The position numbers and the translations under genes were made by a program. A DNA stretch of 64,000 nucleotides. It comes from Candidatus Hadarchaeota archaeon (GTDB lineage Archaea; Hadarchaeota; Hadarchaeia; Hadarchaeales; JAGGTB01). The stretch is from contig CAYLJV010000003.1 in NCBI GenBank assembly GCA_964384105.1, positions 64,001 through 128,000 on the forward strand, in the 5' to 3' direction. Every line of letters starts with the position of its first letter. Position 1 is the stretch's first letter. Below, piece by piece: positions 744 to 64,000 of this stretch. The notes under the pieces were generated by a model. The model made no database searches. It saw only the letters and a list, made by a program, of their open reading frames with translations, and was not told the DNA's origin.

Positions 744-752
744 GGTGAGAAA

Positions 753-1196
753 ATGACCAGAAAAAGCAGAAAAGCTAGGAAAAAGCGCGGGAAGAGAACA
801 CATGGAAGAGGGAGTTCTCGAAAAGCTCGACATTCGGGACATAAAGGTGGTAAAGGCCAAGCTGGGAGCCACAAGCATCTCTGGAGAAAGGTTATTACCT
901 CCGATCCCAGGTATTTCGGAAAACATGGTTTCAAGCGTCCACCTATGGTTAAGGAGGAAACCAATGCAATTAATATAGGCGAGCTAGATGAACGAGTTGA
1001 AGAGTTGTTAGAAGCGGGACTAGCGGAGAAGAAGGGGGATGTGATTGTAGTGGATGTTTCCAATTTGGATTTCGACAAAGTTTTAGGAATGGGCAAGGTT
1101 ACCCATCCTCTTAGGGTCATAGCTGAAAGCTTCTCAAAAAGTGCCGAAAGGAAGCTGGAAGAAGCTGGAGGCGCAGCAGAGACAGGTGAAGATTGA
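753..1196 (+). CDS. rpl15: 50S ribosomal protein L15 (uL15)
   Basis: RGKRTHGRG...GGKGQAG...FGKHGF...KVLG; upstream of secY. Confidence 0.96.
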   Translation: MTRKSRKARKKRGKRTHGRGSSRKARHSGHKGGKGQAGSHKHLWRKVITSDPRYFGKHGFKRPPMVKEETNAINIGELDERVEELLEAGLAEKKGDVIVVDVSNLDFDKVLGMGKVTHPLRVIAESFSKSAERKLEEAGGAAETGED

Positions 1197-2590: not shown

Positions 2591-2645
2591 ATTTATTGAA
2601 GTGTAGTTTTAAGTAGAAAAGTGATTAGTTAAGTGTGGTATTAGG

Positions 2646-44003: not shown

Positions 44004-44058
44004 GATTCAGGGCACAGTGCACTCTAACTCGTACATAAAGGTCGCTCGGAGGAGGATC
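44004..44058. repeat. 55-bp conserved block, copy 1 (copy 2 at 59441-59495)
   Basis: 51/55 identical; both copies lie about 70 bp upstream of a REC-PAS-HK gene. Confidence 0.9.
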
Positions 44059-44129
44059 GACCATAAAAAAGGAAAATTATTGAAATTGAGGTAATTTTTA
44101 ACCTCGAATACATATTAATATTAAGTGAT

Positions 44130-47690: not shown

Positions 47691-47936
47691 ATGTCAAAGA
47701 AAGCTACAACACTTTATCTTGATGAGGGAACAGTAAAGGAAGCTAAGAGATTAGGTTTTAACTTATCCAGGTCTTGTGAAATAGCGTTAGAACGGAGAAT
47801 ACTGGCTGAGAAACGCAGGTTATCATTCGATTATTCGGAAAACTCTAAAGAAGTCAAACCTAAAATTAATCCTACAGTGATTGCGGGGGTTGCCAAGTCA
47901 GGTCAACGGCGCAGCGTTGAGGGCGCTGTCCCATAG
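47691..47936 (+). CDS. CcdA-like ribbon-helix-helix protein, homologous to the integrase N-terminus and reading into tRNA-Leu
   Basis: TTLYLDEGTVKEAKRLGFNLSRSCEIALERRI vs integrase ITVQISKSLVERAEEEGLNVSKSCELALERRI. Confidence 0.75.
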   Translation: MSKKATTLYLDEGTVKEAKRLGFNLSRSCEIALERRILAEKRRLSFDYSENSKEVKPKINPTVIAGVAKSGQRRSVEGAVP

Positions 47937-47970
47937 GGGTTCCGGGGTTCGAATCCCCGCCCCCGCACCA
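47883..47970 (+). tRNA. tRNA-Leu(GAG)
   Basis: GCGGGGG/CCCCCGC acceptor, CAGCG-TTGAGGG-CGCTG anticodon arm, variable arm, GGTTCGAATCC, CCA. Confidence 0.97.
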
Positions 47971-48249
47971 TAAACCTCAATTCACGGGGGGAGATTAATT
48001 GTAAGTTTCAACCAACTGGTTAATTTTAACTCTTTTATAGAGTTCCTAGAATAACCTGTGAAGTGATATTTACCCCGCTAAGAGCAATCTAATGGGCAAC
48101 ACCTCAGGAACGAAAAATGAAGTAATAAACCTGTCCAGTTAAGACGGTATTAACTTTCTCAAAATAGAAGTATATACTCCCACCTTCTGTTCTTCCACTT
48201 GAAAATAGTTATTCACCCGACAAAGAGAGTGAAGTTCGTTATATTTCTG

Positions 48250-48930
48250 CTATTCTATTTTATCCAAAATGTAATCCGCACCACCCTGGGTTACCCAATA
48301 ATCTGCGGATAGTCCTGAAGGAAAATAAGTTTCAATCTTCTTTGGTTCATTTTCCAACTTATCTTCAATATATTCTCCATACCAGTCCTGAACATTTCCT
48401 CCCATAAGTACAATCTTCTCAGGCTCAAAGTCTTTAATAATCTGACGAAGGTAAGGATGACAAAATTCAGCCGCCTTATCAGGATTATTATCCTTATCAG
48501 ATACATAGCAGTGTATGAAGTCCGTCATGACCCATTCTTTTTCTTGATGATTTAACGCATTCAAGAGTTTGTATATCTCCCTACAATTAAACGAGGGGAA
48601 CTGATAGGATTTATCCAAATAGACCGGTTCTTTCTTATTGCCTGGCTTAGCTACTTTCTTATCATTTCTAAGATAATAATCTGCCATTTCCTCGGCTTGT
48701 TCTTCGGCGGAGTTCAATCCTTTCCATGTGTGACCGCCTCCATGCCCTTTTGAGACAATCAGAACATCAATAGGGGATTTTATTGGAGAAGGATTGGATA
48801 TAACTCCGACAAAAGGAGAATATTCATTGCCGAACTTCTTCTCTTCATCTTCAAATTTACTTCTGCTTTCTCGGCATTTTTGACAACGGTCTTTCTTTTC
48901 AAGTTTTGCAGAGTATTCCTTATAATCCAT
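48250..48930 (-). CDS. uracil-DNA glycosylase-like (family 4-type fold) protein
   Basis: CQKC, VLIVSKGHG, TDFIHC, FCHPYL..II....PEKIVLMG, YFPS. Confidence 0.65.
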   Translation of the reverse strand: MDYKEYSAKLEKKDRCQKCRESRSKFEDEEKKFGNEYSPFVGVISNPSPIKSPIDVLIVSKGHGGGHTWKGLNSAEEQAEEMADYYLRNDKKVAKPGNKKEPVYLDKSYQFPSFNCREIYKLLNALNHQEKEWVMTDFIHCYVSDKDNNPDKAAEFCHPYLRQIIKDFEPEKIVLMGGNVQDWYGEYIEDKLENEPKKIETYFPSGLSADYWVTQGGADYILDKIE

Positions 48931-49117
48931 ATATCTCTAATAAGCATGACTCAAGAATAAATAAAAATTCTGGACAGATGGAGAAAAATTTTCTGTAAAG
49001 TCAAAAAAATTGAAGCTAATAGTGTGTTAACTTTCTATTTTCTCTGACCTGAACCGGAATGCTTGTTCTTCGGTCACGCACCATAATCTTAATCTTTTGG
49101 ATGTCTAAACTCCATGT

Positions 49118-49612
49118 ATGTTCAAAGGAAGTAATTTACAGGGTAAAACAGAAAGCATGTTCAGGGCTTTTTCCTGGTGTCTGGTTCTAACACTGGTTGT
49201 GATATTCTCTGTTTATCCTATTGCCTCAAGAAATCTTACCAGTTTAGCAGGTCCAATACTTTTAATTCTCGGACTTACACCTCTTGCTGTTCTGAAAGTA
49301 AACAACGAATCTTTAGCATCTGTAGGTGCTGATATTGCCTTCGGAGCCTTTGATACAGGTTTCATGACTATAGCAACTCTTGCTGGAGCTACATTTGCAG
49401 GAATTTTGGGAGCTGTAATATGAGCTGAAGCTGGAGATGCTATAACCGATGCTTGGGCTGGTCTAATTGAGGGAAAAGTAGCATCTTGGCTCCGTGAGAG
49501 GGGGATAGATGAAGCTCGCAGGCCTTTTACTACTTCGATGGGAAAAATGTCAGGATGTTTATTAGGAGCTGGAGTTACAGTTTCCATAGCTAGCATAATT
49601 GGAATTTTTTAA
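49118..49612 (+). pseudogene. membrane protein with internal in-frame TGA (49421-49423)
   Basis: GAVI*AEAGDAITDAWAG...GKMSGCLLGAG continues in frame to TAA at 49610-49612. Confidence 0.65.
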
Positions 49613-49650
49613 TAGAAACCAAACTTTATTCTGTAATTTCAATAAAAGAA

Positions 49651-49794
49651 CTAGCCCAGAGAGTTGAATTTATCCAAAATATCTTTTTTAATCTCTTCTT
49701 CAGTCTCCAAAGAATCTAAAACTATAATCACTTCTTCTTCAGTCAGATCATAGAGATTGAATACAATTGCATCAATTAAATTATCTGTTTCTTG
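49651..49794 (-). pseudogene. C-terminal remnant of an Eco57I/type IIG-like restriction-modification enzyme
   Basis: QETDNLIDAIVFNLYDLTEEEVIIV...*, matching the ID..V..LY.LT.EE tail motif; no upstream gene body. Confidence 0.6.
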
Positions 49795-50251
49795 TCATCA
49801 GTGTGGAAAAGAAATTCAAGACAACGATGAAGTAATAGTTATGGATTATAGGGGAGATTATACAGACATAACTGATCTTTGGATTTATCATAAAAGCTGT
49901 ATAGACCCCATATCAATAGAAAGAGAGAAAGTTCTCGATAATGGAAAATGGAAAGTAGTTAAAGAAAATCTTAAATAATTGTATTAATCCAATGCATTCT
50001 TTGAAAAAATGATAAGAAAAGAATTTCTGAAATAACTCACAGAATATTATTTTACGTCGAACCTAAGAAACATTCAAGTATTAATTGATGGAAATAGAAA
50101 AATCTTATTTTGCGAGTGGTTTAAAACGGTTACCAAAATAATCGGAATTGTAAACCTTCTATTCTTCCAGAAGTGTTTTACGAGTGGTATAGAAAATGAT
50201 AGGGGAAGATGAACTCTTCTCAAAAATATAAGGGGTTAGAGGTCCGATTTT

Positions 50252-50785
50252 ATGGCTGATACTAAGTATAAGGTTAACAATGTCGTCATGACTGTTTCTT
50301 ACGAGAATACTAGATTTAACTTGGAGGAACTTACTTCTAATTTAGAAGGGGCAAGATATGAACCTGAAAGCTTCCCTGGAGTAATCTATAAAACGATCGA
50401 GCCTAAAGCCGCTTTTCTGATATTTTCTTCTGGAAAAGCGAACTGTGTAGGAGCGAATAGTGTCGAAGGAGGGAAGAAGGCAATAGAAAAGCTTACAGAT
50501 AAACTTCAAGATTTAGGGTTTGGTGTTGGTGAGCCAGTCATTGAAGTTCGGAATATGGTTGCTAAAGTGGATTTTCAGAGGAGTTTCGATCTGGAGGAAA
50601 TAGCAAGGAACTTTCCTCACGCAGAATATAATCCAGAAACATTTCCAGGACTCGCATTCAGATTGGAGGGGTATAAGAGTATGATATTTCTGCTTTTTAC
50701 ACAGGGCACAGGGGTCTGTGTCGGAGCTAAGAGTGAGGAAGAGATTGAGGAAGGTATAAGAAGAATAGAAGAGGCCATCGAATAA
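50252..50785 (+). CDS. tbp: TATA-box binding protein (TBP) paralog
   Basis: Two repeats: YEPESFPGVIY...LIFSSGK and YNPETFPGL.FR...LLF..G..VC.GAK. Confidence 0.93.
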   Translation: MADTKYKVNNVVMTVSYENTRFNLEELTSNLEGARYEPESFPGVIYKTIEPKAAFLIFSSGKANCVGANSVEGGKKAIEKLTDKLQDLGFGVGEPVIEVRNMVAKVDFQRSFDLEEIARNFPHAEYNPETFPGLAFRLEGYKSMIFLLFTQGTGVCVGAKSEEEIEEGIRRIEEAIE

Positions 50786-50882
50786 GAATCTTAAAAATTC
50801 TACAAGTTAGAAAAACATGAAACAATCTATGGCATGGATCAATCCAAACCTACTAGACTAGTAGTTACCCACTTATGACTAT

Positions 50883-50996
50883 TTAGATTAACATTGCAGT
50901 AGCATCCAACTCTATCTGACAGTGAATACACCTGTCCCTGCCATCTTCAATAGTTTCCTTGCTAAGTTTTTTACCACACTCAACACATTTCTTCAT
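50883..50996 (-). CDS. 37-aa C4 Zn-finger micro-protein, copy 1 (not in ORF track)
   Basis: MKKCVECGKKLSKETIEDGRDRCIHCQIELDATAMLI*; AGGAG RBS and TATAAATA upstream. Confidence 0.85.
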   Translation of the reverse strand: MKKCVECGKKLSKETIEDGRDRCIHCQIELDATAMLI

Positions 50997-51132
50997 TATC
51001 AAAACTCTCCTTGATCGGCCCTAAGGTCTGAAGCACTATTTATAGGTCACTGTTTGCAGGGTTGAAAAGTGGAAATATGAGTAATGATGACTAATTCTTT
51101 TAATTCCGGAGGATTATTTGGGAATACTTAAA

Positions 51133-51245
51133 GGAGAGGGGAGAGTAGTTCATACGAAGTCAAGTTTATTGGACGTTACTAAACGTCCACCTTAAACCCG
51201 AGCTGGGCGGTCCCCCCCGACCGTTCAGCTTCCTCCCCCCTTCTC
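51133..51245 (+). ncRNA. candidate structured ncRNA (closing stem plus two hairpins)
   Basis: GAGAGGGG/CCCTTCTC; TGGACGTT-ACTA-AACGTCCA; AGCTGGGCGGTC-C6-GACCGTTCAGCT; TTTTAATT box about 30 nt upstream. Confidence 0.45.
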
Positions 51246-51344
51246 AAAAATTTATTTATATTCATAGACTTCTCTCGAGAGAAGGAACTAAATCAAATGT
51301 TCACAGATGATATCTCTACAGGGAAGAGAACGTATTGTTAACTT

Positions 51345-52298
51345 TCAATACACTTCTACCTCTTCATCGAGCTCTTCAGCTAGTTCTTTGTACCTGTTTC
51401 TAACCGTGACTTCGGTAACGTCTGCAACTTCTGCCACTTCTCTCTGGGTTCTCCTTTCACCACATTTCAGCGCGGCTATGTAGAGTGCTGCTGCAGCTGT
51501 TCCAGAAGGAGTTTTGCCCGATGTCAATTTTTCTTCTTGTGCCTTCCGAATTATCTTCATAGCTTCAACCCTGGCTTCATCTGATATATTCAGCTCGCTT
51601 CCGAACCTGGCTACATACCTGCTTGAGTCCGTGGGGGGAAGATCAATGTCTAATTTTCTTGCAATAAATCGATAGGTGCGTCCTATCTCTTTTTTATCCA
51701 CTCGGCTAACTTCAGTTACCTCTTCGAGAGTTCTGGGCATTTGAGCTTCCCGACAGGCTGCGTAGAGAGTAGCTGAGACCACTCCCTCTATCGAACGGCC
51801 TCTAATTAAATCAGCGTATAAAGCTTCCCGATATATTTTGGAAGTATTTTCTCTCACGTTTCTCGGTAAACCAAGCTGAGAGGCCATCCGATCCATCTCA
51901 GAAAGGGCGAAAGCTAGGTTACGGTCCTTGGCACCTGAAACCCTAATACGTTTTTGCCATTTTCTAAGACGGTACATTTTATAGCGTTTTCCTGGAGACA
52001 GGGTCTTTCCTCGACTGTCTCTATTGCTCCAATCGATTTGGGTTGAGAGCCCCTTATCGTGAATAGTGTACGTCATTGGAGAGCCTCCCCGACTGCGCTC
52101 TTCTCTTTGCTCTTGACTGAAAGACCTCCACTCAGGCCCCCTATCCTTAATATCTTCCTTTATAACAAGGCCGCAGCTCCTGCAAACAATCGTATTCTGT
52201 TGATAATCCCTGACAGTAACACTATTCCCACAATTAGGACAATGAAACTCTGAACTTCTGTTCTTCACTTTCTTAGAGGAATAAGTATCGGTCAACAA
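51345..52298 (-). CDS. tfb: transcription initiation factor IIB (TFB) paralog
   Basis: [45 protein letters not shown]. Confidence 0.96.
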
Positions 52299-52409
52299 TA
52301 TTCTCTATCCTGATCATTCCTGTTAGTTTTTCCTGAAAGAACAAATTTTCAATTGGTTCCAAAAGGATTGTCCGTTAATTCTGCACTATATTCCGGCTTC
52401 TTTAGCATA

Positions 52410-52487
52410 CTACTCCTCTAAGTTTCTCTCGATCCACCTTACCTTCTCATCAGCAGTCATACTACTCCAGTTATCTGGAACTTTCAT
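52410..52487 (-). CDS. 25-aa micro-ORF upstream of tfb
   Basis: GAGG RBS then MKVPDNWSSMTADEKVRWIERNLEE*; a 19-aa ORF follows immediately (52349-52408). Confidence 0.4.
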   Translation of the reverse strand: MKVPDNWSSMTADEKVRWIERNLEE

Positions 52488-52581
52488 AATTCCTCATCTA
52501 TTCAGTTATCTCAAAGTAATCAACTATCTTGTTTATGGGTAGAGTGGTCACTGGAAGTGAACAGAAAATTGACAAATCATC

Positions 52582-52607
52582 TAAGCGGACTAAATGGTTT
52601 AATCAGG
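52582..52607. repeat. 26-bp bipartite motif TAAGCGGAC-N7-KTTAATCAGG, copy A (B 52928-52953, C 57649-57674)
   Basis: Three same-orientation intergenic copies with fixed spacing. Confidence 0.8.
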
Positions 52608-53035
52608 CCACCTCTTATCATAGGTGAGGTCTTGATTGAGTAATAATAAAAACACTTTACAAGGAGAACCAAGATAGAATTGTTTGTCCTGCCGGAAAGA
52701 TATCCAAAATATATCCTTAAGTCATCAAACCTCGGAAATTTTTTAAAGTGATGCCGAGGAATTTCAGTTCTCTTTGCTTTCAATTAGTTCAAGAAATCAC
52801 GAATCAACGGGGGATTGCCAGTCCCGGCAGGGCTTTTCCCTTTATATCAAGTATGTCTTTTTATGCAAAGTCGCAGGACTCTCAAGCTATTGTAATAATT
52901 TTGAATTAAATATCTCCTATATGAAGATAAGCGGACAATTTAGGTTAATCAGGCTAGCCAAGTAATTTGGTTATTGTCTGAAGAGGGGAGATTATAATGA
53001 AAAGAGTTAGACTACCAAGTAATTTCCCCATGGTA

Positions 53036-53088
53036 GAGCGTCGATACCGCTATACCCTCAATCTATGGCATGGTTGAGTCGAAACCCG
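53036..53088. repeat. ~53-bp double-hairpin repeat (second copy 58340-58392, partial copy 50823-50850)
   Basis: GAGCG-N7-CGCTATACCCTCAATCTATGGCATGGTTGAG-N3-AAACCCG. Confidence 0.85.
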
Positions 53089-53116
53089 CTAATAGTAGAG
53101 GCCCAATTGCGATTTT

Positions 53117-53230
53117 TTAAATTAACATCGCAGTAGAGTCCGACTCGGTCTGACAATTAAAACAACGGTCCCTGCCCTCTTCAATAGCTTCCTTACTCAA
53201 TTCTTTTCCACACTCTATGCACTTTTTCAT
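53117..53230 (-). CDS. 37-aa C4 Zn-finger micro-protein, copy 2 (not in ORF track)
   Basis: MKKCIECGKELSKEAIEEGRDRCFNCQTESDSTAMLI*; same length, RBS and TATA as copy 1, with synonymous divergence. Confidence 0.85.
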   Translation of the reverse strand: MKKCIECGKELSKEAIEEGRDRCFNCQTESDSTAMLI

Positions 53231-53780
53231 TTTCAATTCACTCCTTGATCAGTCCCAGAGAAAGAAGTTCTATTTATAAATTATGAATATCTCTTTTCAA
53301 GTTATTTCAGTTATTTCTTCTATGAACTCTCCAGCAAGCTCGACTTTATTGCCAAAACTTCTTATTAACTGTTTGGATTTACTTTCAGAGAAAAAAGCTC
53401 CTTTTACTCGCAATACATACTTTAGTTACCAACCTCGTAAATTTTTATCCCAAAAAACCGGATTTTACTTGAATTAGCTTCCTAATTGAACGAAAAATCT
53501 GAAGGAATCAAACCCGGGTCTTTTACTTATAAATAAAACCCTTGAAGTCCCTTTTCTTTATAGATAATTGGGCTTACAGGGGATTTATCTCCGAATAAGA
53601 CAAGTTGTTTTACTATATAGATAGTTTTCTTCTGTTTTTATTCCTTAGAAAGGTAAAAAAGAAAGTAAAAGCATGAAGGTGGCCTTCACGAAATTCCGAG
53701 AGAAGTTGGAAAATCAAGATTGAAATCACGAACCGAAAAGCATTTAATTTCAAATTCTGAGTTCGGGAAGGTGAGTTTGA

Positions 53781-53976
53781 GGGGCCGGGATTGTTACCCT
53801 TTCGCGGGCAGGTTGAAAAGCAGCCGATCGGTAGCCGACCGAAGCAGAGCCTGCCGGCATCGCCCGACCCCTGTGCCCCATTCTCAGTAAAAACAAGGAG
53901 GTGAGAAACCCCGAAGGGACACCAAAACCGCCAGTGTTGAAAACTCGGTTCCTAAAGAGAAGAAGTTCACCGGCGG
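53781..53976 (+). ncRNA. candidate structured ncRNA, copy 1
   Basis: GC-rich, shares conserved blocks and stems with 56347-56551; CGAAAAGCATTTAATT BRE/TATA at 53734-53749; T-tract near 54020. Confidence 0.6.
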
Positions 53977-54243
53977 AATCGTAAAACACATGACAATTAA
54001 TGTTATTAAACGAGGAATTCTTTTTGGCTTACTCCCTCCCATATATAATTTAACAATATGTTAAAAATATTCCTATTTTCTGTAATTCTACCTTCACAAA
54101 ACTTTAGCATAAGTAAATAAAAAGAATAAGGAGAGGTCCCTTGGTTCTGAAGAAGGGTCAGGGAGTTCCTCCATTTTTTTACTTTCACCCAACTCAGACA
54201 ACCGCTTAACAGTACATAACCAAAGAGTTAAATCTATGATAAA

Positions 54244-54507
54244 TTGGGAAGGCCCATACCTACTTTCAGATATGTAATCGAGAAAGAGATAGAAAATTGG
54301 AAAGAGTTCAAGAGAGCTTTGAGTAGGAAAGACAAAGAGATTTTCAATAGGATCATGGAGTACTGTAGGAAACACATTCCAGCTTGTTCTCAGACCAACA
54401 ATCCAGAACCCTTTCGGCCTATGATTATTTCTATTATTCTAGAGCAACTAAAGAAATTGAATTTTCCTGAAGAAGCTATCTCGAAAATTCAAGAGTTGAT
54501 AGAATAG
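54244..54507 (+). CDS. small helical protein resembling the PolB2-associated arCOG07300 family
   Basis: MGR..PTFR...W..F.RAL...D...F......R.H.......P.P....ISI.LEQ pattern, recognised from memory of the family. Confidence 0.6.
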   Translation: MGRPIPTFRYVIEKEIENWKEFKRALSRKDKEIFNRIMEYCRKHIPACSQTNNPEPFRPMIISIILEQLKKLNFPEEAISKIQELIE

Positions 54508-54571
54508 AAAGAATAAATTCAAAAGGGCAGAAACTATTTTGGTTTTTTACTTCTGTTTTTCTTTAATTGAC

Positions 54572-55507
54572 TTAATATGTTTCCAATTCAATTTCGAGTT
54601 CTTTGGCCACATCCTTATACCTGTTCCTGACAGTGACCTCGGTCACCCCCGCCACCTCAGCAACAGATCTCTGGGTTACTCTCTCCCCACCTTTCAAGGC
54701 GGCTATGTAAAGACACGCAGCAGCCGTCCCACTGGGACTCTTGCCCGAAGTCAGTTTTTTCTCTTGGACTCTCTTAATCAAATACATAGCATTCGTTTGG
54801 ACTTCTCCAGAAATACCAAGCTCACTACCAAAACGAGTCACATAACTGGCCGGATCAGTCGGGGGAAGGTGGATATCTAACTTTCGTGTTAAAAACATGT
54901 AACTACTAGTGATCTTCTTCATCTTAACTCGGCTTACCTCTTCGATCTCCTCAAGAGTTCGAGGCATCTTTGCTTCACGACATGCTGCATAAAGTGTAGC
55001 TGATACGACACCTTCGATTGATCTACCACGAATCAAGCCCTTTTCAACAGCCTCTCTGTAAATTTTTGACGCGATCTCCTGCGTACTTCTCGGCAGACCC
55101 AGCTGAGATGTCATCCTACTCATCTCACCAAGTGCAATGATCAAATTTCTATCACCTGAACTAGCGATCCTGCTTCGATTATGCCACTTTCTCAGTCGGT
55201 ACATCTGCTGGGACTTTTTTGGAGACAGATTCTTACCCTTCGCATCTCTGTTCTTCCAGTCAATATTAGTGGAAAGTCCTTTATCGTGAATAGTGCCCGT
55301 TGAAGGAGGCCCGGATCTCTTTTTATTCTGATATTCTTTGGCACTGAAAGCTCGCCATTCTGGACCCCTGTCCTTAATACTCTCTTCTATGATCCTACCG
55401 CAATCAGCACATATTCTAACGTTTTGCTGATAATCCATAATCCTGGAGGTACTACCACAGTTCGGACATTTAGCGGATGCTTTCTCAGAACCCTTAATAG
55501 AACTCAC
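54572..55507 (-). CDS. tfb: transcription initiation factor IIB (TFB) paralog
   Basis: [45 protein letters not shown]. Confidence 0.96.
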   Translation of the reverse strand: MSSIKGSEKASAKCPNCGSTSRIMDYQQNVRICADCGRIIEESIKDRGPEWRAFSAKEYQNKKRSGPPSTGTIHDKGLSTNIDWKNRDAKGKNLSPKKSQQMYRLRKWHNRSRIASSGDRNLIIALGEMSRMTSQLGLPRSTQEIASKIYREAVEKGLIRGRSIEGVVSATLYAACREAKMPRTLEEIEEVSRVKMKKITSSYMFLTRKLDIHLPPTDPASYVTRFGSELGISGEVQTNAMYLIKRVQEKKLTSGKSPSGTAAACLYIAALKGGERVTQRSVAEVAGVTEVTVRNRYKDVAKELEIELETY

Positions 55508-55990
55508 ATTATTACTCTTCTTCCCATCTACTAGTACTTTCCTCCGATTTTTCAGAATACGCTAAGGAGGAACTTAAGTAGTTCAAAAATGATTTTGAAA
55601 AGCCAGCCAAATATAAACTCTAACTCTACACCAAAAACACTTAAAAACTCGAAAACATCAAAAATACACTCAATCGATAAATAAATACCTAAAAAGTCTT
55701 AGAATTTTGTTCCAGACCATAAATATTCTTAAATAAGGTGACAGAACACCATATTTATTCTCATAGGGAATCCAGTTAACTCTTTCATAAAAGTTAAAAA
55801 TTAACTAATTGTTTTTCAATCAAAATATCAATTTTATCCATATAAAATTCATACCTATATCATCTTAGATGATATGGTAAAATCGGAATATTGATAGTTT
55901 TTAGTTTTTAGAAGTTTTTACTGAAATGAGAAATGAATAGTTTCTAAAGAGAAAGTAGATAAGAATTGAAAATGGTGGATAAGGTTTTAA

Positions 55991-56242
55991 TTGTATCCAA
56001 GATTAGGAGGATTTGGAGGGGTTACAATGAGCAAAACTAATCAATCAGTCACAGAAGAAGATGATGAGATTTTCAGCAATGAAAGATTTGCAGAAACAAC
56101 AATACAGAGGATAAGCAAGTATGTAAAAAATTACGGTGAGAAGGACAAGGAGGATATTTACAAGCTACTGAAACGGTGTTATGTGGCTCTGTGCCGATTG
56201 AGGAATTGGGAGCCACAAGATCTCGACAAATTCAGGGATTAA
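55991..56242 (+). CDS. small hypothetical protein
   Basis: GGAGG RBS before MSKTNQ (56027). Confidence 0.55.
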   Translation: MYPRLGGFGGVTMSKTNQSVTEEDDEIFSNERFAETTIQRISKYVKNYGEKDKEDIYKLLKRCYVALCRLRNWEPQDLDKFRD

Positions 56243-56346
56243 TGCATTATTTGGATGGTTATCTCCGATTTAACTTGAAAAATCCTAAATAAAAAATCGA
56301 AAAGTATTTTAATTCCAAAACAGTGATTTTGATAGATTGAAAATAA

Positions 56347-56551
56347 GGGGCCGGGATTGTTACCCTTTCGCGGGCAGGTTGTTGCCTATACCAGTTTAGG
56401 TCGGTCGCCAACCAACCACAGAGCCTACCGGAACGCCCGGCCCCAGAGCCCCCTTAAACCGAGCCAATGGGGAGGTGAGAAACTCCATAGGGGGACTCAT
56501 TCCGCCGGTGTTTGTAAATTCTGTCCTCAAGAGAAGAAAAGATACCGGCGG
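56347..56551 (+). ncRNA. candidate structured ncRNA, copy 2
   Basis: First 35 nt identical to copy 1; GGGGCCGGG/CCCGGCCCC and CCGCCGGTG/TACCGGCGG stems; CGAAAAGTATTTTAATT promoter at 56298-56314; T-tract near 56601. Confidence 0.6.
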
Positions 56552-56817
56552 GAGCTTGATAATGGAAATGTTAACTAAAGCATCTGAACTAGAAAGAAGC
56601 CTTTTCTTTAATCCACCCCCCCAATTGATTCATCGGAATTAAACTCCGTATGCAAAGACCCTTTGCCATCTGAATGTGTGCATTTAAATTTTACGAATTG
56701 TGTCGAAAGTTTTAGGGCAAGGATTTTGTTTGAAACTGTGGAGCTTATGGTTCACTTAAGGTAAATAATGAGGAGAGTTCAACAAATTTTCAGTTAAAAA
56801 CTCCTATTTTTTAGTTT

Positions 56818-57075
56818 CTAGCTACGAGGAAGCAAATTCCTCATCTGATGGTATTTTTCGAGAAATTTTGAGCCCTTTTCAGTTAAATCCCACTGTAAAG
56901 GCGAGTGGGCCCTTACTTCAACGAGACCATTTTTCCGTAGCTGTTCGAGATACTCATTGCATCTCTTAAAGTTCAAGTTTGCTTTATAAACAATATGGGT
57001 TTTTCGAGATTTATGTTTAACAGCTGTTAGAAGATCTGCATAAACATCGAATCTTGTTCTTCGGTCCCTACCCAT
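56818..57075 (-). CDS. archaeal winged-helix transcription regulator (COG3432/HTH_45-like)
   Basis: RRTRFDVYADLL...KTHIVYKANLNF...YL..L...GLV...LTEKG..FL. Confidence 0.85.
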   Translation of the reverse strand: MGRDRRTRFDVYADLLTAVKHKSRKTHIVYKANLNFKRCNEYLEQLRKNGLVEVRAHSPLQWDLTEKGSKFLEKYHQMRNLLPRS

Positions 57076-57784
57076 AATACCCTAAGTTGTTCTTACCAAA
57101 CCACCTTACTTAAGGTTAGCTTACTACTAGTACAGAACATTATTCTTAGGAAGGGTAAAAAGCGAACTTTCTGTATTTTTTAACATAATGTTTGAAGAAA
57201 ATATTTGTTAGTGTCGGATTGAAAGTTTTAGGATAGAAAATAAAAAGAATAAAGGGGTATACGCCTTTTCCCTTTCTCTCTTAAACAATATGATTAGAAA
57301 AAATATAGTGGGTTTGTTTAATAATTATTTATATGGAATAATTTTGTGAAAAAAATAGAACTCTCTAAAACTAAACAGAGAGAAAATTGGAATAGGATCA
57401 GTAATGTGATAAAAATTAGTGCAGTTAGTTTTTTGCAACTGTCCCTACCATTTTCTATTTAATTTTCGTACAATTTACCTACTATTTTGAAGGCTCTGGA
57501 TTATCATACCATACAATAATCGTTGTAGTTGTTCCTTATTTCGGATTTTCACTACTTGCTTTAAAAAAACTGGAGACCACTAAAAAGCCTCACAGAAAAA
57601 TAGGCTATACTAAAGAGATCTGAAGGTTCCCAAATGAATTGGATCATGTAAGCGGACTGAATGGGTTAATCAGGTTAGGTTATTTGAAACGGTAATTTAG
57701 TTATTAATAGATTTTCTTCGAGTTTGGCTCATAGAACCCTATAAGTTTTGAAACAAGACTTGTTTATTCTTATGTGAGTCCCTT

Positions 57785-58321
57785 ATGAAAAAGGATAGAA
57801 AATCAGATAGGAAGAAAAAGGTTGCTATCGGGATAATCATAATAATTTTAGTAGTGATAGTCGCATACCTATATTTCTCTGGAGGTTCTACCGAAGCAGA
57901 AGAGGTCAACAGTGTTGACATTGAAGTAGAAGGTGATACCAATCTTGGTTTCTCTGGAGAATACAGGATGAGGGCCAGAGGTTTGCAAAAAGAGAAACCA
58001 GACGTGAGGTTGGATATAACTTCTGGAAAACCCGCTATGACTATCTGGATCTACAATAGCGAGGAGGGCGAACTATATGGGTATAATTCTGATGACGACT
58101 ATTGGGTTAACCTTTCGGAAATGCCCGACTTAGAGTATCTACAAGAATTCGCAAAATCAATGAGAGACTACGTGAGTTCAGGAGAGGGTGACATGACAGT
58201 AGAATATCAAGGGTCGAAATATGAATTGAGAATTAATGAAGTAAACCCATCACTCCCCGACAGTCTATTCACTCCACCAGAAGATGCAAAAATGGAGAAC
58301 TTAGTTCCAAAGAATCTGTAA
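57785..58321 (+). CDS. membrane-anchored exported protein (LolA/DUF4412-like tail)
   Basis: N-terminal TM anchor; VRLDI; NPSLPDSLFTPP C-terminus. Confidence 0.6.
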   Translation: MKKDRKSDRKKKVAIGIIIIILVVIVAYLYFSGGSTEAEEVNSVDIEVEGDTNLGFSGEYRMRARGLQKEKPDVRLDITSGKPAMTIWIYNSEEGELYGYNSDDDYWVNLSEMPDLEYLQEFAKSMRDYVSSGEGDMTVEYQGSKYELRINEVNPSLPDSLFTPPEDAKMENLVPKNL

Positions 58322-58409
58322 ATTCAAACTTACATGATAGAGCGTATCTGACGCTATACCCTCAATCTATGGCATGGTTGAGGCCAAACCCGATTAATAC
58401 TTACCTTAA

Positions 58410-59438
58410 TCAGAGAATTTCAATTCCAACTTTATCATATATCTTCTTCAAGTGCTTTGGTGTTTGTCCATTGTAGTTTCTCAAGTCAATACTTCCGAAG
58501 TGCCCAAGTAACATTTCCTTAATGTCAGTTGATCCGCCTTTCCTATCCCATTCTTGTGAGAAGAACTTCCTGCAGTGCTTCAGTTTTAGGTCTGGTTTTT
58601 CATCCATCTTGTTTGTAATGAGATAGATAGCCTTGTGAATGAATGGTCTTTCAGGAAACATTCCCTTCAACTTCTTCAGTCTCTTCTGTGCCTTTTTGTT
58701 GAAAACTACAATTCTTTCTCCTTTGGTCTTGGTCTCCTCCGCTGGAAGATTGATAATCCTATCATCGAGATTAATATCCTCCCAGTCTAACCTGTAAACC
58801 TCCCAGGGCCTCATCCCAGTAACAGCAGAAAGGTGAACTGCAGTCTGTGCTCTGTAAACGTATTTGTGTTCAGTGCCCTCGTGATCTAATTCATCCATAA
58901 GATTGAGAATATCTTCCTTCTCCACTATCTTAGGCCTGTGTTTACTCAAATTGGGTTTCTTGATCTTCTCAATCCAGTAAACGTTCATCTCCTTGAAGAA
59001 CTGCTTGATTGCTTGAATGTCATCGGAGAGAGTTCTGTTAGAAACCTCATCTCTTCTCTCGTTAAGATAATCAGTCACATCATTGAGACTGCAGGACCAA
59101 TTCACGTGTTCTCCCAGTTTTTCTAATTTTCCCTTAACTGCATTTATTCTTAGAGAACTTCTACCAGCCGCTTTTAGTCTGTTACAAAACTCTTCTATAT
59201 CTTTCTTCGAAAATGAGACCTTGTGATTATTGCCTTTGTTTCCATTACCATTCGGATAACTTCCATTTTGTGGTTTGAAGTTGTGATTGTTTGCTACATT
59301 GGAGTCTATTTCCTCTAGAGTTATGATTCTTCTCTCCAGAGCTAATTCACAGGACTTAGATACATTAAGCCCCTCTTCCTCGGCCCTCTCAACTAAACTT
59401 TTGGATATTTGAACTGTAATTTTATCTTCTATATTCAT
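58410..59438 (-). CDS. tyrosine recombinase/integrase with N-terminal CcdA-like RHH domain
   Basis: TGMRPWE (R), TKTK (K), KHCR (KxxR variant), LLGH, RNY (Tyr); likely start MNIEDK. Confidence 0.92.
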   Translation of the reverse strand: MNIEDKITVQISKSLVERAEEEGLNVSKSCELALERRIITLEEIDSNVANNHNFKPQNGSYPNGNGNKGNNHKVSFSKKDIEEFCNRLKAAGRSSLRINAVKGKLEKLGEHVNWSCSLNDVTDYLNERRDEVSNRTLSDDIQAIKQFFKEMNVYWIEKIKKPNLSKHRPKIVEKEDILNLMDELDHEGTEHKYVYRAQTAVHLSAVTGMRPWEVYRLDWEDINLDDRIINLPAEETKTKGERIVVFNKKAQKRLKKLKGMFPERPFIHKAIYLITNKMDEKPDLKLKHCRKFFSQEWDRKGGSTDIKEMLLGHFGSIDLRNYNGQTPKHLKKIYDKVGIEIL

Positions 59439-59440
59439 TT

Positions 59441-59495
59441 GATTCAGGGTGCAGTACACTCTAACTCGTACATAAAGGTCGCTCTGAGGAGGATC
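59441..59495. repeat. 55-bp conserved block, copy 2, in the divergent integrase/kinase promoter region
   Basis: 51/55 identical to 44004-44058. Confidence 0.9.
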
Positions 59496-59570
59496 AAGTT
59501 TAAAAAAGGAGTTTAAAAGTGAAATCACGTGTTTTTTTAGCTTATTACTTATATAACATTAACAATAGAT

Positions 59571-62500
59571 ATGAAAGTTCTTCTCGTTGATGATGAGCCT
59601 GATATTTTAGAACAGGCTAAAATCTTTCTCGAAAAAGAGGAGGAAAGGTTGAGTGTTGAAACTGTTGCTTCAGCTAGGGAAGCTCTGAATTTATTGGAGA
59701 AAAACGAATATGATGGTATAGTATCGGATTACCAGATGCCTGAGATGGATGGGCTTAGCGTTTTAAAAATTTTAAGAAAGGAAAGGCAAAATGGCATTCC
59801 ATTCATAGTGTTCACCGGTAAAGGTCGTGAGGATGTGGCTATGAAGGCCTTGAATCTTGGGGCCGATCGTTACTTGCAGAAGGGCGGTGATCCTAGGTCT
59901 CAGTATGGTGTATTGGCACAAGCTATAGTCCAAGAGATCGAGCATTGGAAGCATAAAAGGGAATTAAGGAGTATTGGTTGGCTTCTCACAAAGGGGGTAG
60001 AAGAAACAACTTACGAACCACCTTATGACGATCTAACAGAGCTGAATACTGAAAGAACGATATTGGACTCCATAGGAAAAGACCTGCTTCAAGATATTGT
60101 GGATCATTTTATGAGCTTACTTGACACTTCAAGTGCAGTCTACGAGAAAAATGGTGATTATGCATTAGGAATCTTCGCTTCCAAATGGTGTAAATTCATG
60201 GATAAAAAATCCAGAGATCTCTGCAACAAAGATGATAATCAAGAAGCATTAGATTGTGGAAAATGGATCTGTCACGAATCCTGTTGGAATGCTGCAAAAA
60301 TCTCAATGGAAAAGGGTAAACCTGTCGACGTTGAATGCAGCGGAGGAATAAACCTGTACGCAGTTCCAATCCGAGCGGATGGAGAAATTATTGGCTCCAT
60401 AAATTTCGGTTATGGAGAACCGCCAAAAGATCCAGACAAGTTAGAAGAGCTCTCAGAAAAATACCAGGTAAGTATTGAGGAACTCCGTAAAAATGCGAGT
60501 TCATACGAACCTCGTCCTCATTTCATTATTGAAGTTGCCAAGAACAGGTTACGAACTTCAGCCAGACTGATAGGGGAAATCGTGAGAAGAAAAAGGTCTG
60601 AAAGAGAATTAGCAAAGGAAAGAGATAGAGTTCAAAAGTATCTGGAAACCGCTGAAGTAATGATAGTAGCGATAGGCAAGGACCACAAAGTTATGGAGAT
60701 AAACAGAAGAGGTTGTGAAATACTCGGTTATGATAAGAAAGAAATTATTGGAAAAGACTGGTTCGAGAATTTCATTCCTGAAAGAACGAGAAAAAGCTTG
60801 CTTAAGGAGATTCTAGAGCCGTTGATGGAAGGAAATATTGACAAAGCCCAAAGGCATGAAAATCCTGTACTGACCAAAGACGAAGAAGAGAGAATTTTGT
60901 CCTGGAGAAATACCGTGCTAACTGACGATACTGGAGAAATCATCGGAACTCTAAGCTCAGGAATGGACATTACCGAACAAAAAGAAATGGAGAACGAGCT
61001 GCGTGAGAGTGAGGAGAAGTACAGGCGACTTTTCGAGACCGCTCAAGATGGAATGCTTATACTGAACGCCGACTCCGGAGAGATAATGGATGCTAATCCT
61101 TACATTCAAGAACTTTTGAGTTATTCGAAGGAGGAGCTTGTGGGAAAGGAGCTCTGGCAGATAGGAACCTTTAGGGATATTGTTGAGAACAAGGAGAAGT
61201 TTGAGGAGTTGGTGGATGAGGATTATATTCGTTACGAAGATATGCCTCTGGAAACGAAAGGCGAAGAGGAGGCTTCGGTCGAGTTCGTCAGCAATACGTA
61301 CGAGGCCGGTGGAGAAAAAGTAGTGCAGTGTAACATCAGAGATATTACGGAGAGAAAGAAGGCTGAAGAGGAGTACAGGAATCTTTTCGAAACTATGGCT
61401 CAGGGCGTGGTTTATCAGGATTCTGAAGGAAACATTATTTCGGCCAACCCTGCTGCTGAAAGGATGTTGGGGTTGACGGTTGATCAGATGAAGGGGCGGA
61501 CTTCTAGACATCCTGAGTGGAAGGCAATTAGGGAGGATGGGAGTCCTTTTCCTGGAGAGGAACATCCTGCCATGGTTGCTCTACGAACGGGAGAGGAAGT
61601 GAGAGATGTCGTTATGGGTGTTTACCATCCTGAAAAAGAAGACCATGTCTGGATCAATATAAATGCATTACCTCGGTTTCGGGAAGGTGAGGAAGAACCA
61701 TACCAGGTGTATACTACGTTCGAGGACATCACTGAGCGGAAGAGAGCGGAGGATAAACTCCGTGAGAGAGTCAAAGAATTAAGCCTGTTTTACAATTTTT
61801 CGAAGCTTGTTGAAGAGTTGGGGAATTCTCTGGAGAATATACTTCGGGGATTAGTGGATTTGATTTCTCCTGCGTTGCAGTATCCAGAGATAACCTGTGC
61901 CAGATTAGTTTTGGATGATGAGGAGTTTAAAACAGACAATTATGAGGAATCCAAGTGGAAACTGAAAAGCAATATTCTTGTGGAAGAGGAGAACAGGGGT
62001 TTTCTCGAGGTTGATTATTTAGAAGAAAAACCTGAACTGGACATAGGTTCTTTCCTAGAAGAAGAAAGAGATCTCTTAGAGGCTATCACAGAACGATTGG
62101 GCAAGATAATAGGCCGACTTGAATTAGAAGAAAAAGTCCGAGAGAGTGAGGAAAAATTCAGGAGTTTGTTCGAGTCTTCCCAGGACGCGGTTATGGTTCT
62201 TAAACCGCCCAAATGGGAGTTTACCTCTGCCAACCCGGCTACCGTGGAAATGTTTAGGGTGGAGGACGAGTCCGATTTTTGCTCGAGACCGCCAAGGGCG
62301 TATGCCCCTGAAAAACAACCGGACGGTCAGTCGTCCAAGGTAAAAGCGAAAAAGATGATCGACAAAGCGATGAGCGAAGGTGAGGTTTTCTTTGAATGGA
62401 CACATAAACGGTTAGATGGTGGGGAATTCCCTGCCACGGTTTTACTAAGTCGAGTGGAGGTCGGAGAGGAGAGTTTTTTGCAAGCTACAGTGCGAGACAT

Positions 62501-63521
62501 CACCGAACGAAAGGAAGCTGAGGAGAGACTTAAGGAAAGTGAGGAAAAGTTTCGAAGTTATGTGGAAAATGCGCCGAATGGAGTATTTGTCGTTGATAAG
62601 GATGGAAACTACCTTGAAGTTAACAAAACTGCTTGTGAGGTGACAGGATATTCTGAAGAAGAACTGCTAGAAATGAATATATCAGATCTAGTTACCTCTG
62701 AAGCTCGCGACAAAGCTATAGAAACTTTTGAAGAGCTTCTTGAAACAGGAAAAATGAGAACGGAACTCCCCTACCTCAGGAAAGATGAAGGCAAAGGATA
62801 CTGGAGTATAAATGCTGTAAAGATCTCGGATGATCGCTATCTTGGTTTTGTCGAGGATATCACGGAGCGAAAAGAAGCGGGGGAGAGGGAGAAGTTCCTC
62901 CACTCACTGTTGAGGCATGACGTTCGAAACAAGGCTCAGATCGTGCAGGGATATCACGAACTGTTGTTGGACTGTGATATGCCCGAAGAGGCGGAGGACT
63001 ACGTGGAGAAGGCTAGTAAGGCAGTTCGGGACAGCATAGATCTGATCGAAAAGGTTAGGACGTTGAGGGAAGTTGGTGAAAAGGAAGAGTTGGGGGAGGT
63101 TAGCATTGGATCGATCCTGGATAAAGTGATTAGTGAAAGTGAGTCTCAAGCTGATGAAAAAGGAATAAAAATAGAATCGGGGAGTTTGGACTGCAAAGTT
63201 CAGGGTGGGCCCCTCTTGGAGGAACTTTTCTCAAACCTTGTGGAAAATTCAATAGAACATGCCGGTTGTAGAAAAATCCTGATTTTGGGAGAAGAGACCA
63301 ATGAGAAGTTTATAGTAACAGTTGAGGACGACGGTAAGGGAATTCCGGAGAATAAAAGAGACAGAATATTCGAAAAAGGTTACAAAGCAGGGGAAACCAG
63401 CGGGTCCGGTTTGGGGCTCTATCTGGTCAAGGAAATAGCTGAGAGTTACGGTGGCTCAGTTGAAGTCAAGGACTCCGAATTAGGTGGAGTAAGATTTGAT
63501 GTCAGTCTCGAAAAAGCTTAG
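59571..63521 (+). CDS. hybrid sensor kinase: REC-PocR-multiple PAS/GAF-like-HisKA-HATPase
   Basis: REC; Cys-rich PocR-like WCKF...C...CSGGINLYAVPI; five PAS; RHDVRN; GSGLGL. Confidence 0.92.
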   Translation: MKVLLVDDEPDILEQAKIFLEKEEERLSVETVASAREALNLLEKNEYDGIVSDYQMPEMDGLSVLKILRKERQNGIPFIVFTGKGREDVAMKALNLGADRYLQKGGDPRSQYGVLAQAIVQEIEHWKHKRELRSIGWLLTKGVEETTYEPPYDDLTELNTERTILDSIGKDLLQDIVDHFMSLLDTSSAVYEKNGDYALGIFASKWCKFMDKKSRDLCNKDDNQEALDCGKWICHESCWNAAKISMEKGKPVDVECSGGINLYAVPIRADGEIIGSINFGYGEPPKDPDKLEELSEKYQVSIEELRKNASSYEPRPHFIIEVAKNRLRTSARLIGEIVRRKRSERELAKERDRVQKYLETAEVMIVAIGKDHKVMEINRRGCEILGYDKKEIIGKDWFENFIPERTRKSLLKEILEPLMEGNIDKAQRHENPVLTKDEEERILSWRNTVLTDDTGEIIGTLSSGMDITEQKEMENELRESEEKYRRLFETAQDGMLILNADSGEIMDANPYIQELLSYSKEELVGKELWQIGTFRDIVENKEKFEELVDEDYIRYEDMPLETKGEEEASVEFVSNTYEAGGEKVVQCNIRDITERKKAEEEYRNLFETMAQGVVYQDSEGNIISANPAAERMLGLTVDQMKGRTSRHPEWKAIREDGSPFPGEEHPAMVALRTGEEVRDVVMGVYHPEKEDHVWININALPRFREGEEEPYQVYTTFEDITERKRAEDKLRERVKELSLFYNFSKLVEELGNSLENILRGLVDLISPALQYPEITCARLVLDDEEFKTDNYEESKWKLKSNILVEEENRGFLEVDYLEEKPELDIGSFLEEERDLLEAITERLGKIIGRLELEEKVRESEEKFRSLFESSQDAVMVLKPPKWEFTSANPATVEMFRVEDESDFCSRPPRAYAPEKQPDGQSSKVKAKKMIDKAMSEGEVFFEWTHKRLDGGEFPATVLLSRVEVGEESFLQATVRDITERKEAEERLKESEEKFRSYVENAPNGVFVVDKDGNYLEVNKTACEVTGYSEEELLEMNISDLVTSEARDKAIETFEELLETGKMRTELPYLRKDEGKGYWSINAVKISDDRYLGFVEDITERKEAGEREKFLHSLLRHDVRNKAQIVQGYHELLLDCDMPEEAEDYVEKASKAVRDSIDLIEKVRTLREVGEKEELGEVSIGSILDKVISESESQADEKGIKIESGSLDCKVQGGPLLEELFSNLVENSIEHAGCRKILILGEETNEKFIVTVEDDGKGIPENKRDRIFEKGYKAGETSGSGLGLYLVKEIAESYGGSVEVKDSELGGVRFDVSLEKA

Positions 63522-63526
63522 GATAG

Positions 63527-63955
63527 ATGAGTGATAAGATGGAGAAATTCAAAAAAAGGGAATTTAGACAATACCGTGAATTGATAGACGGTATGAACGA
63601 CGCCGTATTTATCCACGATCTAAATTGTAATTTCCTTTCAGTGAACCAAGTGGCTGTCGACCGGCTTGGCTACTCGGAAGAAGAACTACTTTCCATGGGG
63701 TTAGATGATATAGATGGTTCGAAAGAAGGAAAAAAGGTCAAAGATAGAATCCAAGAAATAGAAAAAAAAGAAACGATAGTTTTTGAATCCATTCATGTTA
63801 CGAAAAGTGGGGAAAAAATCCCCGTAGAGATAAGTTCAAGTCCGATAAATTATCGAGGCGAACCGGCAGTCTTCAGCGTGGTTAAAGATATTAAGGAAAG
63901 GAAAAGAGTGGAGGAGGCCTTGCGCGATATTACTTCTGCCATGGTTTCCCAAATA
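63527..63955 (+). pseudogene. PAS-domain sensor gene truncated at attR (frame stays open to window end)
   Basis: MSDK...YRELIDGMNDAVFIHD...KDIKERKRVEEALRDITSAMVSQIG, then tRNA-derived sequence. Confidence 0.7.
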
Positions 63956-63985
63956 GGTTCCGGGGTTCGAATCCCCGCCCCCGCA
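63956..63985 (+). repeat. attR: duplicated 3' 30 bp of tRNA-Leu(GAG)
   Basis: Exact match to 47938-47967. Confidence 0.95.
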
Positions 63986-64000
63986 TCACAACCCCAATTA

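Follow-up and report, generated by a model that had tools for sequence, protein, structure and literature searches.

How does a set of general transcription factors come to lie behind a tRNA gene, between copies of that gene's own 3' end? We address this question for a 64,000-nucleotide stretch of DNA from a Candidatus Hadarchaeota archaeon, referred to here as the window, which corresponds to contig C3:64001-128000 of genome G000 (1.62 Mb, 12 contigs, GC 0.40, 90% completeness). Positions follow window numbering unless a contig is named; relatives' genomes are designated G001-G007 and so on, and loci fetched for comparison carry L numbers. The region in question, element A, measures 16.0 kb and encodes a tyrosine integrase, a TATA-binding protein (TBP) and two transcription factor B proteins (TFBs). 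Where an archaeon has many TBP and TFB paralogs, their role is thought to be like that of alternative sigma factors, and to our knowledge the expansion of these families is poorly documented outside the haloarchaeal megaplasmids. Element A is probably the younger of two elements inserted in tandem at tRNA-Leu, a cryptic integrated element that carries TBP and TFB genes as cargo acting on ordinary promoters and that is now decaying.

The tRNA-Leu(GAG) gene, called by ARAGORN at 47883-47970 on the plus strand, is intact and serves as attL, with its exact core at 47938-47967. This 30-mer, made up of the T-arm and acceptor end, has exactly three exact copies in the genome, all on the plus strand of C3 (47938, 63956 and 66108), the third of which (window-equivalent 66108, C3:130108) lies outside the window, 2.1 kb past the second. 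At 88% identity the att repeat is longer and spans 48 nt (47929-47976 against 63947-63994). Element A (47971-63955) is flanked by direct copies of the tRNA 3' end on both sides, and att2 (63956-63985, plus strand), an exact 30-bp copy, is both the truncated attR of element A and the attL of a remnant, B. The order along C3 is tRNA-Leu, element A, att2, remnant B (2.1 kb), att3 and ordinary genes, the first large open reading frame (ORF) past att3 resembling pyruvate kinase by eye. Remnant B contains a ParE-like toxin (E 2e-5), a DUF7557 protein (E 7e-11) and a small membrane ORF. A tyrosine recombinase would have inserted element A site-specifically into the 3' part of tRNA-Leu(GAG), and the older tandem insertion would be remnant B with its ParE-like and DUF7557 pair, ending at att3 (66108). 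Att1 and att2 also have right flanks that stay alike past the end of the tRNA (54 nt at 87%), and elements A and B therefore appear to have had related left ends. Att2 is not peculiar to this assembly, because a Logan contig of run X1, which may be the source sample and is one of two mat metagenomes that contain the island (X1 and X2), crosses it with zero differences. The initial annotation of this locus, made from the letters alone, had described an att-bounded, integrase-bearing insertion at tRNA-Leu, and the exact 30-mers, the intact tRNA and an integrase of family PF00589 bear this out.

The integrase gene (58410-59438, minus strand, with the methionine of MNIEDK as its likely start) encodes a XerA-like enzyme with a CcdA-like N-terminal region. 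Its Phage_integrase match (PF00589, E 1.3e-11, in the open frame 58410-59528) covers profile positions 3-84 only, the first half of the catalytic domain; the XerA-like match in the NCBIfam scan reached E 1.1e-17, and the catalytic residues R, K, HxxR, H and Y are present by eye in the C-terminal half. Relatives of the enzyme are sporadic: one of five genus genomes holds one, at 27% identity, and the best match elsewhere is to Archaeon SCG-AAA382B04 (49%), followed by others at 28-38% (and one short fragment at 55%), mostly in metagenome-assembled genomes of Thermoplasmatota. Tyrosine-recombinase matches occur at five loci of G000, and only that of the island lies near TFB genes. The integrase is absent from all 36 TFB loci fetched from relatives, and neither it nor the island protein TFB2 has relatives in IMG/VR by single-protein scans, which find close relatives only.

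Partial tRNA-Leu copies are common in the genus, with one in G001 (762 bp past its tRNA) and five on contig C48 of G002. Fragments from three genomes (att3 of G000, the G001 fragment and units 1-4 of G002:C48) all start at the anticodon loop in the att alignment, which is where tRNA fragments left by tRNA-targeting integrases are expected to start. On the element side these fragments have a common non-tRNA junction, (G)CTCTCG before TTGAGGG, with otherwise unrelated flanks; full tRNAs read GCGCAGCG at this position. A shared attP would be the simplest explanation of the common sequence, because the same non-tRNA junction is found in fragments of three genomes. By tblastn, the genes of the island, including those for TBP, TFB and integrase, were found at none of four relatives' tRNA-Leu(GAG) loci (G001, G002:C6, G004 and G006, downstream stretches of 1.3-17.5 kb), and likewise not on G002:C48.

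The TBP gene of the island, TBP2 (50252-50785, plus strand; PF00352, E 2.9e-46, 155.6 bits), is intact, its frame of 181 aa being free of stops and both of its repeats scoring above the curated cut-off. It is one of two TBP genes in G000, the other being the housekeeping TBP1 on contig C2. TBP1 is 84% identical to its G002 ortholog, whereas TBP2, a divergent second copy, is 59% identical to its own TBP1 and finds its best match, at 65%, in a second TBP on G002:C12, which in turn is 59-60% identical to either TBP1. These identities mark TBP2 as a fast-evolving second TBP type. A second gene of this type is present in two of seven genus genomes, and G005 has an extra copy on a contig with a GC content of 0.55. 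Both TBP2 genes, in G000 and G002, are convergent with a TFB gene.

TFB1 (51345-52298, minus strand; TFIIB repeats E 1.8e-47) and TFB2 (54572-55507, minus strand; TFIIB repeats E 1.7e-44; NF001658 at 422.9 bits, cut-off 384) each combine the PF08271 zinc ribbon with two PF00382 repeats and are intact. With full sets of Pfam domain matches in open frames, the intact tbp and two intact tfb genes of the initial annotation are confirmed. Full-length TFBs number three to seven per genus genome, at 52-66% identity to the TFB2 query, with seven in G000 besides a variant of 98-99% identity on contig C12, and the 34 genomes of other genera have one copy each (two in G037), plus a divergent TFB-like gene (28-36%) in most. 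Judged by these counts, the TFBs of the island belong to a genus-wide TFB expansion. The TFB tree (41 rows, quick IQ-TREE, with support from the Shimodaira-Hasegawa-like approximate likelihood ratio test, SH-aLRT, only) left out fragments with fewer than 250 aligned residues, the divergent TFB-like class (30-38%) and a chimera on contig C10. Most of its clades hold one gene from each of several genomes and would therefore be old paralogs. TFB2 belongs to a clade of four made up of G000 genes only (TFB2, a variant on contig C12, C1:143839 and C8:19597; support 100, stem 0.54). TFB1 forms a long branch of unresolved position, with C6:53413 of G000 as its nearest relative (72% over the kept alignment columns, 76% by tblastn).

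Three RNA candidates had been proposed on the island, and all three are structured. The single-copy candidate Z (51125-51250, plus strand) has a minimum free energy of -52.1 kcal/mol, with z-scores of -6.7 on the plus strand and -4.2 on the minus strand, and no second copy was found in G000. The other two (53779-53989 and 56345-56562, both plus strand) are copies of one family, Y, of about 210-245 nt, which has seven copies in G000; five of the seven lie outside the island, on C1 and C4 (C4:51003-51204(-), C1:135625-135833(-), C1:397613-397831(+), C4:84899-85141(+) and C1:153782-154025(-)). These chromosomal copies adjoin ordinary genes, in some cases directly tRNA genes, and one lies beside the signal recognition particle (SRP) RNA and a tRNA. 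Over the seven copies 86.4% of the cells of the proposed pairing are consistent with it, compared to 32-48% with slid partners, and compensatory change on both sides is seen in nine of 39 pairs, which none of 500 shuffles equalled. In the Rfam scan of 43000-64000 none of the three RNA loci matched a family at E <= 1, and the other Y copies matched none either. BLAST found Y in none of 40 relatives; the Y covariance model gave one partial match, between pstB-like and pstA-like genes on G002:C102 (43 bits). An Rfam sR5 match at 61912-61966 was dismissed as chance, its 27.9 bits falling short of the gathering score of 40 and its position being within the kinase gene; the true SRP RNA is elsewhere, at C4:84328-84638. 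The same scan of 43000-64000 (E <= 1) omitted the tRNA-Leu called by ARAGORN, although the tool listed tRNAs at other loci. Scans for tandem repeats and for sigma-70 promoters and terminators gave nothing above chance.

Several observations weigh against an imported element. The closest relatives of TFB2 are two chromosomal G000 paralogs, 81% identical and set among ordinary genes (prefoldin, rubrerythrin, Usp and an ABC ATPase at one; macro domain, PIN, cupin and DUF389 at the other). The initial annotation had held that grouping of the island factors with chromosomal paralogs would speak against a mobile module, and this is found in part, for TFB2. Because the paralogs sit among ordinary genes at this identity, recent exchange of TFB copies between island and chromosome, in either direction, is indicated by the sequences. 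The TBP2-TFB pair of G002, which a contig end follows at 0.8 kb, lies beside housekeeping genes (geranylgeranyl-reductase-like, ParA/Mrp-like and AMMECR1), and a scan of 19.9 kb of G002:C12 gave no tRNA. By eye, the ends of G002:C48 and G002:C12 enter near-identical sequence, and the G002 assembly therefore appears to break at a repeat next to both TBP2 and a micro-ORF, X, that is described below. There is little synteny with relatives, the ORF to the right of att3 being present in one of five genus genomes and there on another contig than its tRNA-Leu; because downstream synteny is missing, the relatives' loci are not clean empty sites. The integrase is not beside an att end, a kinase region of 4.5 kb separating it from att2, and the GC content of the island is not distinct from that of the surrounding DNA. 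Finally, no contig joining att copies was found among the Logan contigs of four runs of one study, contigs being a form of data that drops rare forms. Two contig joints (4103->7421, with 22 nt on one side, and 5937->3721) were considered as rearrangements and rejected, both lying between paralogous repeats, and other tRNA-Leu genes that have the same T-arm may account for the loose contig ends at the tRNA core.

The right end of element A is eroded. Similarity to the tRNA begins at att2 only near tRNA position 47, and a truncated PAS gene (63527-63955, plus strand; PAS_9, E 6.1e-12), which by eye matches the N-terminus of a full 790-aa kinase on G002:C43, reads into att2. A deletion may have removed the C-terminal part of this PAS kinase together with the left part of attR. 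With att2 and the adjacent kinase truncated, excision is therefore doubtful; element A is probably now decaying and may no longer excise.

What the transcription factors do bears on the first of the rival explanations. The initial annotation had read the island as a mobile promoter-specificity switch, in which a non-canonical TTTAATT box would drive the island RNAs and a stress or DNA-damage programme, and this we find distinctly unlikely. TBP2 and TFB2 are indeed fast-evolving (TBP2 is at 65% between genomes against 84% for TBP1, and the TFB2 clade has its stem of 0.54), and TFB2 is off consensus after the zinc ribbon; a TA-rich box lies about 30 nt upstream of all three RNA loci, and the island carries a UDG-like gene and a small gene of the PolB-operon type. 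However, the TTTAATT box, which is present where it had been reported (51099, 53743 and 56308), is no commoner than chance in the window: its 29 copies compare with an expectation of 34.4, and a count of 29 or more is seen in 84 of 100 shuffles. The five Y copies outside the island have the same kind of upstream box; in most Y copies, chromosomal ones included, it precedes the conserved core by some 30 nt. Because the same box precedes the chromosomal copies, it would not be an island-specific promoter, and its proposed role as the cognate promoter of the island TBP and TFBs is not upheld. Nor is a changed promoter code: the 11-residue C-terminal helix, which we take to be the BRE (B recognition element) recognition helix, does not differ between TFB1, TFB2 and the single-copy TFB of G028, a member of another genus, and the departures of TFB2 from consensus fall mostly in the stretch after the zinc ribbon. 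Of the switch there remains a cargo that is mobile in the evolutionary sense, without a private promoter code. We infer that the TBP and TFBs of the island would provide additional TBP/TFB pairs for the host RNA polymerase, as in haloarchaea, and that these would act at ordinary BRE/TATA-type promoters.

The other rivals concern the origin of the island. Nothing need have been imported if the tRNA were a recombination hot spot, at which unequal crossing-over or gene conversion made the partial tRNAs and shuffled host genes, the integrase being incidental. This would suit the chromosomal TFB2 paralogs, the indistinct GC content and the sensor kinases, in that the first 300-500 nt of the island kinase gene and its upstream region are 81-89% identical to the kinase at 44130 (44004-44500) and to contig C10, where a kinase is fused in frame to a TFB, and in that four kinase genes on G002:C48, despite divergent bodies, have almost the same 3' end, 40-nt spacer and att. 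We nevertheless regard it as unlikely in view of the common non-tRNA junction in three genomes, the start of the fragments at the anticodon loop, the catalytic residues of the integrase and the absence of island genes from all four relatives' loci. Very unlikely, in our judgment, is an active provirus or integrative plasmid with its replication or structural genes hidden among unassigned ORFs (48250-49978, orf83 and orf178) and long AT-rich spacers. Five ORFs have no family, the non-coding spacers amount to about 2.5 kb, orf87 and the winged-helix protein match PHROG families of viral proteins, and TFB genes do occur in archaeal viruses (15 phage records). On the other hand, the Pfam, NCBIfam and PHROGs scans found no replication or conjugation family among the island ORFs, in agreement with the initial annotation, and specifically no capsid, terminase, Rep, primase, helicase or secretion family; TFB2 and the integrase lack IMG/VR relatives, the right att is truncated, and no circular or excised joint is seen in the contigs of the four runs. 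A further possibility, which we hold to be fairly improbable, is that the 3' half of tRNA-Leu(GAG) is a capture site for regulatory genes, an integron-like platform at which recombination drives the expansion of TFB, TBP2 and kinase genes. The four kinase units of G002 stand in tandem with a conserved end of about 120-160 nt (kinase stop region, spacer and att); the units of G000, set against an integron, are 16 kb and 2.1 kb long with promoters of their own, and the TBP/TFB set lies in the same kind of unit.

Element A carries further genes. At its left end lies an ORF for a UDG-superfamily-like protein of 226 aa (48250-48930, minus strand; Pfam UDG, E 7.2e-5, 23.3 bits against a cut-off of 24.3), with an Atlas score of 0.94 to UDG-bearing clusters and no PDB sequence match, followed by a 73-aa ORF with a CxxC...HxxC pattern and no family (49757-49978, plus strand). 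The two Zn-finger micro-ORFs noted earlier were recovered as zinc-ribbon micro-proteins of 37 aa each with CxxC...CxxC, X1 (50883-50996, minus strand) and X2 (53117-53230, minus strand), 76% identical to each other. Within G000 micro-ORF X is confined to the island, and a homolog of X1 at 81% identity is found on G002:C48, the contig with the att array. The label 'TraR-like' given to these proteins has its basis in the CxxC pattern and a PHROG match at E 0.0097 only. A sequence of 33-60 nt with two hairpins occurs in three copies on the island only (50823-50855, 53029-53091 and 58333-58395), after each micro-ORF and after the integrase stop, and may be a terminator or a protein-binding site.

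The product of orf87 (54244-54507, plus strand; phrog_30126, E 2.8e-5) matches two PHROG families without known function. The initial annotation had called it PolB2-partner-like, and it is indeed homologous to a small gene that lies in locus L117 between a Rad51-like (inactive-RadA-like) gene and PolB. Operons of PolB, a small protein and inactive RadA are described in archaeal genomes and in one thaumarchaeal element (PMC6563490). L117 (G005:C2:5000-17000) holds genes for a TFB-like protein (cyclin repeats only), the Rad51-like protein, an orf87-like protein, PolB, a TBP-like protein and an XPB-like helicase; G005:C2 is probably foreign to its bin because its GC content is 0.51-0.58 against 0.40 for the genus, and it was not counted as a genus instance. 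Further along element A are orf83 (55991-56242, plus strand), without a family, the winged-helix regulator (56818-57075, minus strand; HTH_45, E 1.6e-21), which has a paralog of 74% identity at C1:623720, and orf178 (57785-58321, plus strand), which has an N-terminal hydrophobic segment and no family, and a weak homolog of which adjoins the TFB paralog on C8. The large sensor kinase (59571-63521, plus strand, 1316 aa) is of the REC-PocR-PAS(x4)-HATPase type. Both the regulator and the kinase had been recognised from the letters alone.

Kinase genes and partial tRNA-Leu copies are also associated elsewhere. In locus L079 (G002:C48, 215-11088) five partial copies stand in a row, and four of these each follow a different sensor kinase gene, 40 nt past its stop. 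From unit to unit there is near identity in the final 20-65 nt of the kinase gene, in the spacer and in att, and the arrangement resembles an array of kinase cassettes. No integrase was seen on this contig by tblastn with the island integrase as query. Contig C10 of G000 (93-3388) carries a second tyrosine recombinase (294 aa) followed by an open frame of 804 aa, in which the N-terminus of a receiver-PocR-PAS kinase (81% nucleotide identity to the island kinase) is in frame with the N-terminal two thirds of a TFB; the fusion is either the outcome of recombination or a chimera made in assembly.

Other observations concern the TFB genes. Contig C12 (1584 nt) is a second version, 98% identical, of the TFB2 region (54499-55891), and metagenome contigs show alternative letters over 55304-55841 at about double depth, which points to a strain variant or a second copy. 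A TFB paralog outside the island, at 17490-18443, has the longest end branch of the TFB tree (1.1). In ten genomes of sister genera (G007, G009, G012, G016, G026, G027, G029, G032, G035 and G038) the TFB match begins at about residue 64-70 in frames of 658-928 aa, which points to an insertion, for instance an intein, within the housekeeping TFB. One TFB gene, in L084 (G001:C11, 7907-9930), lies 1 kb downstream of a tRNA-Leu(CAG), the sole tRNA-Leu among the 36 TFB loci, and no direct repeat was found there. In L089 (G002:C43, 9769-14768) a partial tRNA-Leu copy is found 4 kb from a TFB gene that faces a kinase gene in convergent orientation.

Left of the element and outside it, ORF81 (47691-47936, plus strand; PF07362 CcdA, E 4.5e-7) encodes a CcdA-like ribbon-helix-helix protein and reads into the tRNA. 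Its residues 7-39 are 45% identical over 33 residues to the N-terminus of the integrase, and its N-terminal part has no counterpart upstream of the relatives' tRNA-Leu, where the match is limited to the tRNA-encoded tail. At C8:12439-12560 (minus strand) G000 has a tRNA-Leu-like gene with an apparent intron, not called by ARAGORN, which shares its T-arm and acceptor end with tRNA-Leu(GAG). The att-like match at this site was considered as an att remnant and rejected, the gene being by eye an intron-bearing tRNA-Leu-like gene.

If element A is a cryptic integrated element as we propose, such elements may offer this genus, in which TFB has gone from one copy to three to seven, one of the ways to duplicate and relocate its TFB and TBP paralogs. 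A small integrase-bearing tRNA element would be a concrete route for spreading general transcription factors, combined with gene exchange with the chromosome, and it offers a compact natural set of TBP2 and TFBs for the biochemical study of promoter choice. Two further leads, separate from this, are the structured RNA with its seven copies and the kinase-att arrays of a relative. Were the capture-site explanation true, archaea would have in this tRNA an integron-like platform that serves genes of transcription and signalling.

Haloarchaeal plasmids and archaeal viruses are already known to carry TBP and TFB genes, and thaumarchaeal elements to carry TFB genes. A literature search gave no report of a tRNA-integrated cryptic element with a TBP and two TFBs, and PMC8651126 has no mention of TBP or TFB. 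In Halobacterium NRC-1 the replicons pNRC100 and pNRC200 are reported to carry multiple TBP and TFB genes, and alternative TBP-TFB pairs have been proposed to select promoters (PMC1447603). By tblastn, 81 plasmid records have a TBP and 274 a TFB, all of them haloarchaeal among the matches listed, at 41-54% identity to the island proteins. The haloarchaeal plasmids resemble element A in having TBP and TFB paralogs on accessory replicons of salt-adapted hosts, but they are replicons of 80-890 kb, compared to a tRNA-integrated element of 16 kb. Among phage records tblastn found TFB in 15 (Sulfolobales viruses YNP1 and YNP2, four rudiviruses and Halorubrum tailed viruses) and TBP in one (Halorubrum virus HRTV-9), at 21-29% identity; these are viruses with structural genes, none of which were found on element A. 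Elements with SSV-type integrases are also described as integrating at archaeal tRNA genes (PMC7253208). A split integrase of that type was considered and rejected for element A: the integrase gene is uninterrupted, with 4.5 kb between it and the closest att, ORF81, whose likeness to the integrase N-terminus had prompted the idea, is outside the element, and no C-terminal fragment was found.

Another close parallel is in the Thaumarchaeota, where cryptic integrated elements have a median length of 17 kb and no signature genes but the integrase (PMC6563490). All integrative and conjugative elements described in that study (Krupovic et al. 2019) encode TFIIB homologues, placed in conjugation modules next to ParB (PMC6563490), whereas element A has no conjugation gene and carries a TBP and two TFBs together. 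No TBP turned up in a term search of the main text of PMC6563490. The host of element A belongs to a different, halophilic lineage, but in its tyrosine integrase, att repeats and TFIIB-type cargo the element is like the cryptic and the integrative and conjugative elements of Thaumarchaeota (PMC6563490).

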